From a virus (lineage: Duplodnaviria; Caudoviricetes), in the IMG/VR virus record IMGVR_UViG_3300036768_001392, positions 1-25,249 of that record: DNA of 25,249 nt; one strand, written 5' to 3'. Numbering within the stretch: the first letter of the stretch is position 1; every line of letters starts with the position of its first letter. Of this stretch, positions 10 to 5,957 are shown one piece after another. The notes under the pieces are model-generated. The model saw only the letters and a list, made by a program, of their open reading frames with translations, had not been told where the DNA came from and made no database searches. The position numbers were made by a program, and so were the translations under genes.

Positions 10-17
10 TATTTATA
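10..17 (-). promoter_or_regulatory. T4-type late promoter TATAAATA, pointing out of the left edge of the window
   Basis: Exact T4 gp55 consensus on the minus strand, inside the inverted repeat ACCTCTAT-TTAT-ATAGAGGT (5-24); gp55 is encoded in this window. Confidence 0.8.
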
Positions 18-133
18 TAGAGGTTTGCTAAAAACAGCTAAAAAACCAGCGCGTTTACCGCGCTGGCGCAGCTCTGAGCAACCGCGAGCTAAGCTAGCCA
101 ACAACGCGCCGAGCGCGCCACCGGCTCTTAAGC

Positions 134-265
134 TTGACATCCTCCCCGGCCTTGAAGGCCGGAGATTCCTGCAACGCTACGCATAGATCGCTCGATGCGC
201 AGTCGTCTCGGTGGGTTCCTGCTTGCGACGGCCAACGCCGTTCGATCCACAGGCCATCCGGGCTG
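134..265 (-). ncRNA. TnpB omegaRNA (reRNA) scaffold; predicted guide is the flank 133 to ~114 (GCTTAAGAGCCGGTGGCGCG)
   Basis: GCCCGGATGGCCTGTGGA...AAGCAGGAACCCACCGAG...GGAATCTCCGGCCTTCAAGGCCGGGGAGGATGTCAA resembles IS605/IS609-type tnpB 3' ends; the 5' boundary is approximate. Confidence 0.7.
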
Positions 266-425
266 ACTCAAGCAGTGCACCCACTTGAATCCCGACCGAA
301 GCGTCGGTCGTGTCCTGCCCTTCGTCTCGCAACTGCTGTATCCCGCGAGAGAGGATATTTATCGCGCTGACCACATCGGCGTTGTCCTCGAACCTACATT
401 CCACGCACTCGAACCTGGCTTGCGT
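177..425 (-). pseudogene. tnpB: C-terminal remnant of TnpB (second zinc-finger CxxC and RuvC-III motif)
   Basis: Translates as TQARFECVECRFEDNADVVSAINILSRG...ACG...KQEPTE, matching the TnpB pattern F.C..CG...NAD..A.NIL; an in-frame TGA lies just upstream and the rest of the gene is missing. Confidence 0.88.
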
Positions 426-478
426 TCAGCGGTCAACCTAGCTTGCTCTCACAAGCTCCGCCCTTCAGGGCGGGGTAG

Positions 479-655
479 TTAATCAACGTCAAGCTCAGGC
501 TCGGCAACGCTGGCAGCCCTCGAGTCCGCACCATCTAGCCCCAAGACCTCGCGGGACTTGAGGGTAAGGTAGTTGTGGAGATCAAGGGTTGCCTGCTCCA
601 TGTTGTCTTCGATAAAGTTCTGCAGCATGCTCTTCAGAGCTTCTCGTTTATCCAT
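479..655 (-). CDS. Small acidic 58-aa protein, probable prohead core (T4 gp67-like); not in the ORF track
   Basis: MDKREALKSMLQNFIEDNMEQATLDLHNYLTLKSREVLGLDGADSRAASVAEPELDVD*; strong SD AAGGAGAG upstream; directly downstream of the prohead protease. The function is inferred from size, acidity and position. Confidence 0.75.
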   Translation of the reverse strand: MDKREALKSMLQNFIEDNMEQATLDLHNYLTLKSREVLGLDGADSRAASVAEPELDVD

Positions 656-780
656 CGCGTTTCTCTCCTTCTGACCAGCGGGCTATGAGCCCGCGTTGGG
701 GTTTGACGCCTTACCGCGGCGTCTAAGCGGTTGTTTTTAAAAGCTTTTTAGCTCTACAGCCGGAGGCACACCGTAGGCTA

Positions 781-1398
781 TCAGCGCCGCCGGGTGAGCT
801 CGTTGATAAACCGTTTCACCTCTTGCGCCAGGTACCGCTGGGCTTGCTCGTCGTGCACCACGGCCTCAGCCAGCGTCATGATCGGCTTGTAGCCAAGCGC
901 CTCGGTCACAACGTCGGGGTAGCACCCAGGGCCAGAGGGCTGGGCCACGATGTCGATGGTGACGAACTGAAAGTCCTCAACGATGCCCTCGTTGGTGACG
1001 TTGCCGGTGCCCCGGGACGAGACGCCAAGCTTCATGCCGCCCTCGATCAGGGCCTTCACGATCTGGCCAGAGGGGGTGTTGAGCACCCGGCACTTGCCCA
1101 TCGCGTTGTTCCCGTCCATCCACGCCTCGGTGATGATGTGGGAAACGTTCTTCAGGTCGATGGACAGGTTGTCTGGGTGGTTAAGCTCGCCGGCGATGTA
1201 CATCCCCTCCTTGGCGCGCTCGTTGATCAGCTGCACGGCCTTCTCGATCTCGTGCCGTGGGTAAATGCGCTGGTTGAGGTTCTTTTGCTCAGCGGCCATC
1301 ATGCGGCCGGCTAGGTAGAGGTTCTTTTGGGCGTCCCGCGACTCGACCAGGTTGACCTCCGACGGGTCATAGCGCTCGATCAAGAACTGTTGTCGCAT
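781..1398 (-). CDS. gp21: Prohead core scaffold protease (T4 gp21-like)
   Basis: Motifs N.N.R.YP, GELNHP (His), GVSSRG.G (Ser), DIVAQPS; lies downstream of the portal gene. Confidence 0.95.
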   Translation of the reverse strand: MRQQFLIERYDPSEVNLVESRDAQKNLYLAGRMMAAEQKNLNQRIYPRHEIEKAVQLINERAKEGMYIAGELNHPDNLSIDLKNVSHIITEAWMDGNNAMGKCRVLNTPSGQIVKALIEGGMKLGVSSRGTGNVTNEGIVEDFQFVTIDIVAQPSGPGCYPDVVTEALGYKPIMTLAEAVVHDEQAQRYLAQEVKRFINELTRRR

Positions 1399-1462
1399 TG
1401 TTGCTTCCCTCCGATGGAGCCTAACAGGGCAAAGAGCTCGCCCGGGCTGTTGCTAGATGCCC

Positions 1463-1468
1463 TATTTA
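1463..1468 (-). promoter_or_regulatory. Late promoter (cTAAATA) for the protease gene
   Basis: Intergenic TAAATA core in sense orientation, 65 nt upstream of the ATG. Confidence 0.65.
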
Positions 1469-1513
1469 GCGAGTTGCTGTTGCTAACGCCGTTTCTTTAG
1501 CTCCAGCTGAAGC

Positions 1514-3124
1514 TCAGCTGGCTGGTGGCTCCGCGCCTAGGTCAAGCTCTTCGCTTTCCTCGCCGCTGCCCTCACCCTCCCCGGAAGGGGACGGCTGAGC
1601 CCCAAGCGCGCCCGGCTCAGGTTGCGCCTGCTCACGGTTATCGTAGATGAGCGGGTCATAGACCTGCCGCAGCTCGTCTACCCCAGCCGCTTGGGTGATG
1701 CCGCGTTCCTGCTTGAGCATGACCTCGTTCATCTGGAGCTCGTCGTCCGTCAGGCCAAGGTAGCGCTTCAGCATGAAGCGCTTGGAGATGTACTTCGTGT
1801 CCTCGATGGCCTTGAACGCGTTGATCAGCTCGGCGTCAAGCGCGGCTTGCCGGTACAGGGCAAAGTTCTGCGGCTCGGGCAGCTCTAGCCTGAAGAGATC
1901 AATGTCGACATCGATGCCGATGACCTGCAGGTAGAGCTTGAACTGCTCGTCGACTACCTTCTCAACGGCGGCCTGCAGGCGCATGATGTAGTTGGCAAAG
2001 CGCAGCTCCTCGATGTACGCGATGCCCACCTTGCCGTCGTTGTATTGGGCGCCCTGGGCATCTTGCCCCTTCATGTAAGAGGTCGGGACGCGCAGCGCCC
2101 GGAACACCTTGTTCATGAAGTACTCTAGCTCAGGCATCTCCCAGGTGGTGCCCGTCGCGAGGGTTTCCACCCTAGATCCCCGCCCGGCTGCCGTCACTGG
2201 GAAGAAATAATCTTCCTGGATCGTTTCCGGGTTATACTGGCTGTCAACGGACGTACCGGTCGTGGTGTTCGGGATCTTCTTCTGGCGGATGTCATTGATG
2301 ATCGACGCCATGTATGCCTTGACGCGCTGGGCTGGCATGTTGCCGACGTCGATGTAGAACACGCGCCGCTCTGGCGCGCGCACGATCCGGTAGATGATGG
2401 CAGCGTCCTCCAGCATCGAGAGCCGACGGTAATCACGGACCGCGTCCTGCAGAACCGACTTGCCAAATGGCGCCGAGTCCCCCATATCGTTCGACAGCGT
2501 GAAGTGCACGATCGCCGCGGCCGGCACTCGCTCAGCCGCCACGTCGGTGGTCGTAGGGGTAAGCCGCTGCTTAAAGCTCGTTTCCTTGATGTGAAAGGCG
2601 ATCGGCCGGTTCGTGTTTGGGTCGATCTCGATCCCGATCACCCTCGTGGGGTCGATGTACTCCCAGGCCTTAGTGTCTGACCGCTTCCTGAAAAAGCAGT
2701 CGCCGTACTTGATCAAGCACCTGGTGATCGCGAACAACCGGTTGCGGAAGTCATGCAGGTTGCTCCATGCCCGGAGAGCAGCGCGCAGCGTGACGATGAC
2801 GTTGTCCTCAATGTCCTCGCTCTGCTCCGTTTGGTACTCGATGATGAACGGCAGCCCAGTTTTACGGTCGAAGTTGGTGATCTCCTCAGCGGTGATGTCT
2901 AGCGCCCTCGCGATGTCGCCGTGATCCATGGCGTCGTACTGCTTGTAGCGCTGCAGGCGCGACGTGGCGCTCTTCAGAAGGTTAGCGAGCCAGGACACTG
3001 ACGCGTGCGCCGAGTAACCGGCGGTAGTCAGGTCATAGCCATCATCGAGGTTGACGCCGCTTTGGTAAGCAGCCTTGCGTGAAGCCGGCTTAACGATGCG
3101 CCAGTAGTTTGTCCAGTGTGCCAT
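1514..3124 (-). CDS. gp20: Portal protein (T4 gp20-like)
   Basis: Hallmark motifs MLEDAAIIYRIVRAPERRVFYIDVGNMP, EDYFFP...GRGSRVETL, YFMNKVFRALRVP, EELRFA. Confidence 0.97.
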   Translation of the reverse strand: MAHWTNYWRIVKPASRKAAYQSGVNLDDGYDLTTAGYSAHASVSWLANLLKSATSRLQRYKQYDAMDHGDIARALDITAEEITNFDRKTGLPFIIEYQTEQSEDIEDNVIVTLRAALRAWSNLHDFRNRLFAITRCLIKYGDCFFRKRSDTKAWEYIDPTRVIGIEIDPNTNRPIAFHIKETSFKQRLTPTTTDVAAERVPAAAIVHFTLSNDMGDSAPFGKSVLQDAVRDYRRLSMLEDAAIIYRIVRAPERRVFYIDVGNMPAQRVKAYMASIINDIRQKKIPNTTTGTSVDSQYNPETIQEDYFFPVTAAGRGSRVETLATGTTWEMPELEYFMNKVFRALRVPTSYMKGQDAQGAQYNDGKVGIAYIEELRFANYIMRLQAAVEKVVDEQFKLYLQVIGIDVDIDLFRLELPEPQNFALYRQAALDAELINAFKAIEDTKYISKRFMLKRYLGLTDDELQMNEVMLKQERGITQAAGVDELRQVYDPLIYDNREQAQPEPGALGAQPSPSGEGEGSGEESEELDLGAEPPAS

Positions 3125-3130
3125 CTTTGT

Positions 3131-5899
3131 TTACGGTGGTCCGTTTCCGTTCAGGTAGGCGTTCGCGCCAACGGCCGCGCCCGCGCGGGGAGCAGTGGCC
3201 GGCGCGCGCTCGAAGGCCATGCCCCTCATCAGCTCATTGGCTTCTCGCATGAGGGTGACCAGCTGCTTAAGGTACTCGGTAGCAACGCTGTCGGTCACCG
3301 AAAGCACCTTATCGCCAAGCCCCCTGGTACCCTCGATGACCTCCGCCCCGATATTTATCGGGGGCTGAACAGGCCCGCCTGGTTGACCCAGCGCGCCGTT
3401 GTTGCTGCCAAAGAGCTCACGGAGCTTGTCCATGTTCGTGATGATGCCAACGCCGCCGCCGATGAGGCCACCAACAGCCGTGCCCACTGGGCCCAAGAGC
3501 GACCCAACGCTAGCGCCCATTAGGGCAGTGCCCAGGATGTCCGCGCCGACGTCGATGCCGGCGCCAAGCCGGCCACCGATCCCTTGCCCCAGCAGCGAGC
3601 CACCAAGACCGATCGCTAGCCCAGCACCGCCTAGCTTAGCTGCACCGAGCAGCTTTCCGCCCCGCCCGCCAGCAACTCCCCCGGTTGCCCCGCCGCCCGC
3701 CAGCGCGACGCCACCGAGGGCTCTGGCAGCGAAGAGCGCCGAGATCGCGGTCCCCGCCAGCGCTGCGCCAGCCGCCTTAGCCGCTGTGCCCAGCGTGCTG
3801 TCGAGCAGCGCCGAGATGGAGTTCAGGATGTTTGTGAGCTCCGTCAGCGGCTTGTATGGCTCCGCGGCGCGCACGGCGGCGGCCAGCTCCGCGTCGGTCC
3901 TGGCCTTGCCGACCTCGCGTGCCTGCACCGTCTTCAGCCCTGCGGTGTAGAGGTGCCCAAGCCCGCTCTCCCCCAGCAGCCGCTCCATGACCACCTCGGC
4001 CCCTAGGTTGCCCTGCTGGACCTGCTGCTCAAAGCTCTGCTGCACCTGCCCGAGCACCTGGTTCAGGAACGCCAGGTTCTCTGGGGTCTGCCCAGCGCGG
4101 CCCCGCCGGATGATGGCCCCCGCCATGGCAGCGGCTTCAGGCGAGATGCCGGCCTGGGCCGCTGCCATCTGCAGCATTGCTGCCTGCCTGAAGCGCTCCC
4201 TGACTGGCGCCCGCAGCTGGGCCTGCTGCTGCTTGACCAGCTCCTGGGCTTGGTCGATGCTCAGGCCTTGCTGCACGTAAAGGTTGCGCAGCTGGACCAG
4301 CTCGTCGGCGTAGGCCTTGCGCCGCTCGACGTCCATGCCCATCAGCGTCTTGAAGATGTCCTCGGTCGAGAGCAGCTCCTGGTCAAGCCGGGCTACCTGC
4401 TGCACCGTCAGCCCGGTCATCGCGCCCAGCTGCTTGGCGTACGCTGTGAACTTGTCCGTAGCCTGGCCAAGCTCCGAGATGCTCCGCAGGTTGATGCCCT
4501 TCGCGGTGAAGACCTCCAACATGCCAGACAGTGACTCGGCCGCCTCTGGCGCAGTGTACCCAGCCTTCTCGAAGCTTTCCTTGAAGGTCGAAAACGCAGC
4601 GTCAAGCTTGTCGCCGAGCCAAAGCGACGCGATCTGCCCGTTCTCGCTCAGCAGCTTGGCGGTTTCCTCAAACGACAACCCAAGCTTGATGGCCTGACGG
4701 TAGACGTTAAGGAAGCTGGTCGCGATGTTGGCGGTGTTGAACCGCACTATCTGCTGGTAGGTCTGGAGCAGCGCGTGGAACGCCTTGTTGAGGTTGGCTG
4801 CGACGGCGGTTGAGCTAGCGAGCTGCCCAGCGTGCCGCTTTAGCCACTCAGTGGCGCTCTTGGCGCTGATGGAAAGCTTGCTGGCGTTGATGGCCGTCTC
4901 GAGCAGCGCGCCGTTAGCAGCGCTGGCGCCGCGGCTTAGCTGCCCTAGCTCAGCGAGCAAGTCCTTCGTAGGCAGCTGCTGGAGAGCGGCTGAGTTGACG
5001 CCGTGGGCACCCAGCGCCTCGGCTGTTCTGTAGGGCAGAGCCGCGGCCACTGGCAGCACGCGCTCCCGCACCTCGATGGAGAGCGCCTGCAGGTCATCGC
5101 TGAGCTGGTTCGTGACGGCGTACAGGCCATGCAGCCCCCGCCCCTCCTTGTCAAGGAGCTCGTTGATCTTGAGCTGCAGCTGCTTGTTCCCGGCGGCGCC
5201 CTGGACGAGCTCCTCGAGGAGGTTAGCGGCTTCCTTGTTGGCCTCAGCGATGGTGGCCTGCACCTCGCCCATCGTTTGCGCCAGCTTGGCGTAATCCTCA
5301 AGCTCAAGGTCTGACCGCAGCTGACCAAGCTCATCATCATAGAGCTTCAGGGACTTGGCGATGTCGCTCAGCGTCGCCGAGGACCGGACAAGGTCGTTAA
5401 TCGACCGGTGCAGCTTGACCATCACGTCGCCCCGCTTGGTGTCGGACAGCTGCTCGGCGTTTTGCAGCATCGCCTGCGTCAGCATCGAGCTGGCGCGGCT
5501 GGCCTTGGCAGCCTCGCTGCTGGCCTTGAAGTAAGCGTTGCTCAGGTCACCGACGGCAATGGTGGCCTCTACCAGCTCCTTGCCATGCAGCCGGCGCAGG
5601 TAGGTGTTCATCTGCTTGAGCGAGGAAGCCGACGCGGCGACCTCCTTGCTGAGCGCGCTGAGCTGCTTGGTTGAGCTCACTTGCGCCGTCAAGAGGGTGG
5701 TCAGGCTCCGCTGGTAATCGGCGAGCGAACGCACCTGCCGCTTGGTGGCCCTGGTAAGCTCCTCCGGCTCATAGTCAGCTAGGCTCGGCCGGCTCCGCTT
5801 GGCGCTGCCAACGTTCAGCCCGCTCCCACGCAGGAACTGCTCTAGCCGGGTGATAGCCGCGGAGAGCTGGTTGATGTCCTTGGGTGAAAGATCTGCCAT
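3131..5899 (-). CDS. Probable tail tape-measure protein
   Basis: 922 aa, Ala/Leu/Gln-rich helical composition with a C-terminal Gly-rich hydrophobic glycine-zipper (GALAG...GPVGTAVGGLIGGGVG); divergent from the chaperone-like genes. Confidence 0.65.
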   Translation of the reverse strand: MADLSPKDINQLSAAITRLEQFLRGSGLNVGSAKRSRPSLADYEPEELTRATKRQVRSLADYQRSLTTLLTAQVSSTKQLSALSKEVAASASSLKQMNTYLRRLHGKELVEATIAVGDLSNAYFKASSEAAKASRASSMLTQAMLQNAEQLSDTKRGDVMVKLHRSINDLVRSSATLSDIAKSLKLYDDELGQLRSDLELEDYAKLAQTMGEVQATIAEANKEAANLLEELVQGAAGNKQLQLKINELLDKEGRGLHGLYAVTNQLSDDLQALSIEVRERVLPVAAALPYRTAEALGAHGVNSAALQQLPTKDLLAELGQLSRGASAANGALLETAINASKLSISAKSATEWLKRHAGQLASSTAVAANLNKAFHALLQTYQQIVRFNTANIATSFLNVYRQAIKLGLSFEETAKLLSENGQIASLWLGDKLDAAFSTFKESFEKAGYTAPEAAESLSGMLEVFTAKGINLRSISELGQATDKFTAYAKQLGAMTGLTVQQVARLDQELLSTEDIFKTLMGMDVERRKAYADELVQLRNLYVQQGLSIDQAQELVKQQQAQLRAPVRERFRQAAMLQMAAAQAGISPEAAAMAGAIIRRGRAGQTPENLAFLNQVLGQVQQSFEQQVQQGNLGAEVVMERLLGESGLGHLYTAGLKTVQAREVGKARTDAELAAAVRAAEPYKPLTELTNILNSISALLDSTLGTAAKAAGAALAGTAISALFAARALGGVALAGGGATGGVAGGRGGKLLGAAKLGGAGLAIGLGGSLLGQGIGGRLGAGIDVGADILGTALMGASVGSLLGPVGTAVGGLIGGGVGIITNMDKLRELFGSNNGALGQPGGPVQPPINIGAEVIEGTRGLGDKVLSVTDSVATEYLKQLVTLMREANELMRGMAFERAPATAPRAGAAVGANAYLNGNGPP

Positions 5900-5931: not shown

Positions 5932-5957
5932 TAAATATGGGGCGATGAGCTATTTAT
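5932..5957. promoter_or_regulatory. Face-to-face late promoter pair: TAAATA (+, 5932-5937) and ATAAATA (-, 5957-5951)
   Basis: One motif per strand in the divergent gap between the tape-measure gene and the chaperone genes. Confidence 0.7.

Follow-up and report, generated by a model that had tools for sequence, protein, structure and literature searches.

The window analysed here, 25,249 bases in length, is a virus contig that makes up the whole of its record and encodes a T4-like portal and prohead protease (profile search). Related complete records are 343–358 kb long, so most of the phage genome is absent from it. Near its start, on the minus strand, the prohead protease gene (781–1398), with a TAAATA motif 70 bases upstream, precedes a small conserved head-module ORF of 58 amino acids (479–655, delimited by ORF and homolog comparison) and an insert that closes this ORF. 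No genes lie between the protease and the small ORF (655–780), where relatives have one to several acidic genes. Homologs of the small ORF are 54–70 amino acids long with a variable acidic tail and, in all seven relatives with listed ORFs, lie upstream of and adjoin the scaffold and major capsid genes, two names that reflect a by-eye reading of sequence and position rather than a profile. The earlier description of this ORF as 'gp67-like' found no profile support, with 0/18 homologs matching Pfam or PHROGs at E 0.08, a search in which short proteins are easily missed, although the head-module position is conserved. The region was present in two microbial-mat runs, X1 and X2, which possibly belong to one campaign and of which X1 is possibly the sample of origin. 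In runs X3 and X4 coverage fell mainly on the insertion sequence (IS) part and was uninformative on phage habitat, and no RNA run was among those listed as containing the region. No GenBank phage matched window 482–1500, and a protease-based search returned relatives of only 71–80% identity, too distant for comparison of the junction.

The insert is the right end of an IscB element (481–431) fused to the terminal 300 bases of a tnpB element (433–134). An earlier note, made from the sequence alone, had described a single mini-element with one left and one right end; the IS200/IS605 derivation, the lack of a protein and the TnpB omegaRNA were all borne out, and the single-element structure was not, given the fusion of IscB and tnpB ends.

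The tnpB piece (433–134, minus strand) shares 84–89% DNA identity with nine metagenomic and viral relatives, from which it differs by only four private substitutions plus one insertion. It begins with a 3′ coding remnant of tnpB (177–433) containing the zinc-finger end and the RuvC-III motif, with an in-frame TGA at 428–426. This C-terminal remnant matched phrog_506 (E 5e-5) and has 72% amino-acid identity to an intact TnpB; about 80% of tnpB is absent in comparison with relatives, as the note had supposed in stating that most of the gene was gone. The omegaRNA scaffold core (134–274) scored 135.5 bits in a covariance model built from 22 relatives with the window left out. Nine full-length held-out copies, some of them near-duplicates of training rows, scored 99–149 bits in the same model, two short or distant held-out copies scored 44–45 bits, and the modelled structure covaries at 12/20 pairs. 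Since the window scores like intact copies and the structure covaries, the claim of an intact-looking scaffold stands and the scaffold is not decayed. The last 136 bases differ from L119 only by an additional A in the terminal loop. The IS605 right end itself (134–168) comprises a GAAT guide, a hairpin with a one-base loop insertion near 152 and a TCAA cleavage site (137–134). The usual length is found in 45/49 right ends, which the window exceeds by its extra loop base, and the boundary at TCAA is the same in all close relatives, in line with the right boundary first proposed.

The left piece (431–481, minus strand) had been read as the left end of the TnpB element. It instead belongs to an IscB element, of which it is the right end, where the omegaRNA starts; it comprises the truncated first stem of a HEARO-like IscB omegaRNA, as determined by Rfam and a genome scan. 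Rfam on 1–2000 placed HEARO at 482–433, covering only positions 2–51 of 211 at 21.6 bits against a cut-off of 83; a sub-threshold HgcC match from the same search was discarded, and Rfam on the whole window gave no matches. A 29-base left motif, scanned exactly against species genomes, was found at 76 loci. Almost all of these copies (75/76) begin GTCAAC with unrelated flanks before GTC, TGAT precedes GTC in none of the 76, and the first stem is closed as in the window in 57. An IscB match lay downstream in 31 of the 49 loci with at least 1 kb of downstream sequence and a TnpB match in 0/76, and iscB was annotated downstream in 3/6 plasmid matches examined. Where the far end of the IscB elements was found, ATGA came next in every case (34/34). 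Window 480–431 is identical to the best IscB right ends over 49/50 bases, with the terminal GTC eroded. Regarded as a TnpA end, the piece reads on the plus strand, with a CAAG guide, a hairpin and a former TGAC cleavage site that is now TAAT. The IscB element is incomplete, with no full omegaRNA and no ATGA-flanked far end at the locus and no iscB within the contig. Multi-copy IscB-type elements also occur in Allochromatium (L032, L046, L048, L054, L074 and L082); their far end lies ~350 bases from the omegaRNA start, which makes them omegaRNA-only mini-elements.

Alignments and the points at which other contigs diverge define the joint. At 431 other contigs part from the window and continue as IscB omegaRNA, and at 433 others continue as tnpB coding sequence; the pieces therefore join at a three-base ACC microhomology (431–433). 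The right end is the source of IscB omegaRNA scaffolds (Meers preprint 10.1101/2023.03.14.532601), and the insert thus consists of two outward-facing right ends on opposite strands. A left-end signature (motif, spacer, guide tetramer, hairpin and tail) was absent from both strands of the window, in which the only other guide-plus-hairpin is on the plus strand and is the IscB right end. TnpA is reported to cut both ends on one strand, guided by the four bases before each hairpin (PMC3201880); with no left end and single-strand cleavage of this kind, the insert is predicted to be immobile, in that TnpA following these published rules should be unable to move it. Exact-match scans, which divergent copies may escape, found the junction in no JGI metagenome and in only three chance matches in IMG/VR, and it is single in the contig. 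The exact end patterns likewise gave 0 matches in IMG/VR, and among 178 loci compared only the window has both ends together. Exact-match unitigs inside the element had a depth near that of the phage flanks and showed no multi-copy level. For the 348-base extent originally proposed, the right end at 134 is firm; the left end is uncertain by one or two bases (481–483), because at the junction the real empty alleles carry 12 bases more than simple removal predicts.

These empty alleles came from a read search that the earlier note had suggested, and their existence bears out its expectation of an element-free allele. Two versions were found in X2, both joining 119 to 483 via 28 other letters: one (depth 53) is nearly identical to the window further out and the other (depth 13.6) is ~9% diverged, these depths being rough and not a measure of the share of cells. 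Among those listed for X1 there was no empty joint. Read by hand, both alleles encode 63 residues with a tail of an aspartate run plus alanine, the same length as a homolog (P0003, 63 aa) that is 83% identical. Removal of the insert had been predicted to give 59 residues, one more than at present; the real alleles are five residues longer than the filled gene. On the minus strand TTGAT (486–482) does lie directly before base 481, and TAA (481–479) closes the 58-codon ORF, as first described. Base 481 is T in the window versus C in all 76 genomic IscB ends, and this C>T change creates the TAA, without which the ORF would extend to 68 codons; the stop is therefore derived. A near-neutral insertion fits the variable tail and the spread of homolog lengths, as the element sits where the small gene tolerates change.

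The predicted 16-base guide (118–133), the host flank after TCAA, was compared by hand with the empty alleles. It matches both at positions 1–9, 11 and 16 and mismatches both at 10 and 12–15 (or, aligned otherwise, with one bulge and two mismatches), and the site is preceded by ATGAT as motif in the depth-53 allele and by ATGAC in the depth-13.6 allele. For ISDra2 TnpB, double mismatches within guide positions 1–12 are reported to abolish cutting (PMC10097598). The proposal that the guide matches the empty allele thus fails for both observed alleles, which carry mismatches within the 12 bases required by ISDra2 TnpB. A perfect target (motif plus full guide) had 0 matches in IMG/VR, and the contig contains no target of the guide. 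Because the ~9% diverged allele shares the mismatched flank, the mismatched state looks ancestral and the filled lineage appears to have changed. The differences from the close empty sibling are concentrated right beside the element (120–133 and 482–483), with flanks farther out nearly identical: a 12-base loss and three changes in six bases adjoin the element, against 2/66 bases further out.

TTGAT (482–486, minus strand) had been taken as the target motif of the element. With 61 copies in the window it is weak evidence alone, and the siblings have TTGAC at this position. True left ends of this tnpB clade consist of the motif, an 11–12 base spacer, the guide tetramer, a hairpin and a tail. 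Among 14 such left ends (that of L163 read by eye), nine have TGAC with CAAG, three TGAT with CAAA or CATA, one TTAC with AAAG, and one is unresolved. Six of the nine relatives that are ~84–89% identical have a visible left end, and all six carry TGAC; it is not visible in L119, L116 and L122. The relatives nearest at the 3′ end (L119–L121 and L123) have no left end in view, which leaves room for a TGAT donor. Taken together, the TGAC of the six close relatives, the TTGAC of the siblings and the missing left end indicate that TTGAT is probably not the original target motif. For ISDra2 the motif recognised by TnpB equals the TnpA target (PMC8612924), and we infer by analogy the same equality for the clade of the window.

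Several signals bear on whether the omegaRNA could be expressed. TAAATA occurs 11 times in the window versus 3.1 in shuffles (15, 361, 1468, 3357, 5956 and 10365 on the minus strand; 5932, 14240, 19954, 20648 and 24481 on the plus strand). Six of these lie 36–105 bases before the start of a structural gene, and those at 5932 and 5956 form a divergent pair. One, within TATAAATA (10–17, minus strand), is a candidate late promoter of the next (scaffold) gene that the insert leaves undisturbed, and TAAATA is found in the same place in 11/11 relatives. This enrichment and conserved placement make a T4-like late-promoter core likely. Another TAAATA, recognised by motif only, lies inside the element (356–361, minus strand), 227 bases before the right end and near the 231-base scaffold length reported for ISDra2 (PMC10097598). 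It results from a C>A change and is absent in 11/11 close relatives and 36/36 tnpB loci compared. An origin in the phage under selection was considered (0.4% by chance, a post hoc figure) and set aside, as an IS contig in X2, although not identical overall, does not differ at 360, and the donor may thus have brought the motif. The scaffold lies in the sense of head transcription, as noted before. A transcript from the protease promoter likely continues via the small ORF into the element, and read-through from that promoter into the omegaRNA is plausible. On these sequence signals, late transcription of the omegaRNA during infection is likely, and the RNA could be loaded into a host TnpB, which is reported to trim omegaRNA 5′ ends itself (PMC10278001). 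A terminator-like hairpin with a T run (45–67, minus strand) lies ~70 bases beyond the right end, a feature found once versus 1.2 times expected by chance.

The nuclease would have to come from elsewhere. The earlier note had looked to an intact tnpB in the rest of the phage, and the 25-kb contig has no tnpB, tnpA or iscB; the TnpB zinc-finger family also had no match in five of five related phage records, two of them complete. Both X1 and X2 contain many close relatives of the right end, and there are relatives in which tnpB is intact. In a search of Burkholderiales-type families, 21/401 genomes contained the tnpB part, and with a best match of only 78% the phage host was not found there.

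We consider the insert to be, probably, an immobile, tolerated and inert relic left by a pair of insertions and an internal deletion, with a guide that is predicted not to cut the siblings seen. This reading builds on what was directly observed, namely the two origins, the ACC join, the missing left end, the derived stop, and empty alleles that are both longer and mismatched; the order of events has only three alleles to go on. Two IS200/IS605 elements would have entered the run of aspartate codons that closes the small head gene. In the favoured model they would have inserted side by side and eight bases apart, IscB before ATGA and tnpB after TGAC or TGAT. A deletion at ACC would then have taken both left ends, both genes and the eight bases, and a six-base in-frame loss with one C>T would have yielded the present left junction. 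In a nested model, tnpB would have inserted after the TGAC that siblings carry at the left junction, and IscB inside tnpB; a second deletion may have run via CAACT, which starts three close left ends and is present in the IscB end, and a CC>TT change and a 12-base slip would complete the left junction. In both models TTGAT would be a by-product. The C>T change would have restored a stop five residues early, and since this falls in the variable acidic tail, the phage would tolerate the insert. A host TnpB loaded with the omegaRNA would do little, given the TGAC motif and the mismatched guide positions 10 and 12–15, and any spread of the insert would be by ordinary recombination with the phage. 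Signs of decay are present in the in-frame TGA at 428 and the extra base in the terminal loop.

The earlier note had favoured a protein-less homing or competition cassette. In such a reading, a late omegaRNA and a host TnpB would cut matching sibling alleles and the surviving empty alleles would be resistant; it would require that matching alleles have already been eliminated or fall outside the data covered here. We regard this as unlikely, and find equally doubtful its more specific form, an immobilised TnpB guide that is locked by the IscB-end fusion, carries an internal late-promoter motif and has already eliminated the matching allele of the head site. The intact scaffold (135.5 bits), its sense orientation with the head genes, the TAAATA 227 bases before its end and reports that standalone omegaRNAs function in trans (PMC10691335) are all compatible with cutting, as is the abundance of right-end relatives in the same runs alongside the existence of intact tnpB relatives; against this, neither the contig nor the five related phage records (two complete) hold a tnpB, the closest clade uses TGAC, and the TAAATA variant is apparently also present in a non-identical IS copy of X2. 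The 12-base loss and three changes in six bases beside the element could also be traces of co-conversion in the course of homing. However, both X2 empty alleles share the mismatched flank and the longer tail and, as one of them is ~9% diverged, this points to an ancestral rather than an escape state; nor did IMG/VR contain a perfect target. The lack of a listed empty joint in X1 would suit this reading, but X1 may be the source sample. A role without cutting, in which the RNA is kept as a decoy for host TnpB or the insert for its promoter-like site, is improbable. It would accommodate the intact scaffold, the lack of a guide target in the contig and the TAAATA within the element; yet with only four private substitutions plus one insertion relative to relatives, intactness needs no selection, a terminator-like hairpin lies downstream, and empty siblings persist in X2.

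There is little chance that the insert is a true PATE, a non-autonomous mini-element that TnpA carried into TTGAT in one piece. Such a history would explain TTGAT immediately before 481, and TGAT left ends do occur in three more distant relatives; removal of 481–134 also leaves an in-frame D-A-stop like the last codons of the siblings. However, the minus strand lacks the left-end guide, spacer and tail, the left piece is identical to IscB right ends over 49/50 bases, and the two ends are found together in the window only among the 178 loci. Insertion of a PATE 3′ of a clade motif would cost no host bases, and here 12 have been lost in comparison with both empty alleles. The same family does include a true guide-only mini-element, the 501-base L124 (minus strand), with a TGAC left end and an internal deletion, and it looks different from the insert; L118 is similar. 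Of L124 and the insert, L124 is the more promising candidate for a guide that is mobile and acts in trans. We give least credence to a chimera assembled from two abundant repeats. Each piece is a repeat of high depth in both runs, X1 and X2, and none of the listed contigs spans the 431–433 join or the outer junctions by 31 bases on each side. Three shared bases are too few to collapse a k-mer assembly graph, however, and three are all that the pieces share. Private changes lie on both sides of the join, and zero-mismatch unitigs of phage-like depth cover 453–1500, 303–425 and 1–152 in X1 and 338–425 and 54–152 in X2.

The relic resembles described systems in part. IS200/IS605 copies reduced to a guide and dependent on TnpB in trans have been reported (Meers preprint 10.1101/2023.03.14.532601; PMC10691335), and like these PATEs and standalone omegaRNAs the insert has no protein, an intact TnpB omegaRNA and right end, a flank-derived guide and a need for TnpB in trans. 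PATEs, in contrast, have a left and a right end on one strand and are mobile by TnpA, whereas the insert combines two right ends that lie on opposite strands and belong to two nuclease families. Over its last 300 bases the insert is 84–89% identical to an IS605 tnpA–tnpB clade with a GAAT/TCAA right end (L114, L117, L125, L163 and the transposase region of Ralstonia phage Dimitile), but it lacks the left end (TGAC, an 11–12 base spacer with CAAG, hairpin and tail) and the tnpA of that clade. It matches IscB elements with a HEARO-type omegaRNA (RF02033; L032, L046 and L025) at 49/50 bases over 480–431 and keeps their first stem, without everything after that stem, iscB and the ATGA-flanked far end, and with the terminal GTC eroded. 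The TCAA end, the flank-derived guide and the TnpB logic are as reported for ISDra2 TnpB and its reRNA (PMC8612924, PMC10097598), for which the motif is TTGAT, unlike the TGAC of the closest relatives of the window, and which has its nuclease in cis where the window has none. Viral CRISPR mini-arrays, whose spacers match related viruses and for which competition has been shown (PMC11656645), offer the same idea, guides carried alone and a borrowed host nuclease turned against siblings; those arrays match their targets, whereas the guide here is mismatched to the observed siblings and its cutting role is hypothetical. A review considers homing directed at co-infecting phages (PMC13565253), and decayed IS605 copies have been described (PMC7290912). 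A literature search with most subscription papers outside its scope found no report of a fusion of IscB and TnpB ends.

As a relic, the insert is a case of two RNA-guided transposon families piling into one low-complexity run of aspartate codons, which supply both ATGA and TGAY. The collapse into a double-right-end fusion would have been tolerated after the stop codon was regained. For genome scans it carries two cautions: a hairpin that follows TTGAT need not be a left end, and a reconstructed empty allele can differ from the real one. If the homing reading were true, TnpB would have its own guide-only analogue of the viral CRISPR mini-arrays, in a setting where filled and empty phages share one sample.

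Other isolated ends were encountered in the same searches. Two Ralstonia phage matches, L003 and L004, were rejected as further copies of the fusion because they are separate short IS ends: L003 has a tnpB-type right end at 1745–1845 and L004 an IscB-type start near 1800, both between Ralstonia phage genes. This suggests that isolated IS200/IS605 end relics are common in phages. A Janthinobacterium plasmid (L112) carries two tnpB-type right ends in tandem, near 2573 and 2717 and thus ~144 bases apart. The viral contig L163 carries, at 2011–3400 on the minus strand, a solo intact tnpB of 435 aa that belongs to the same clade as the tnpB piece of the insert and has a TGAC left end whose hairpin is apparently altered.
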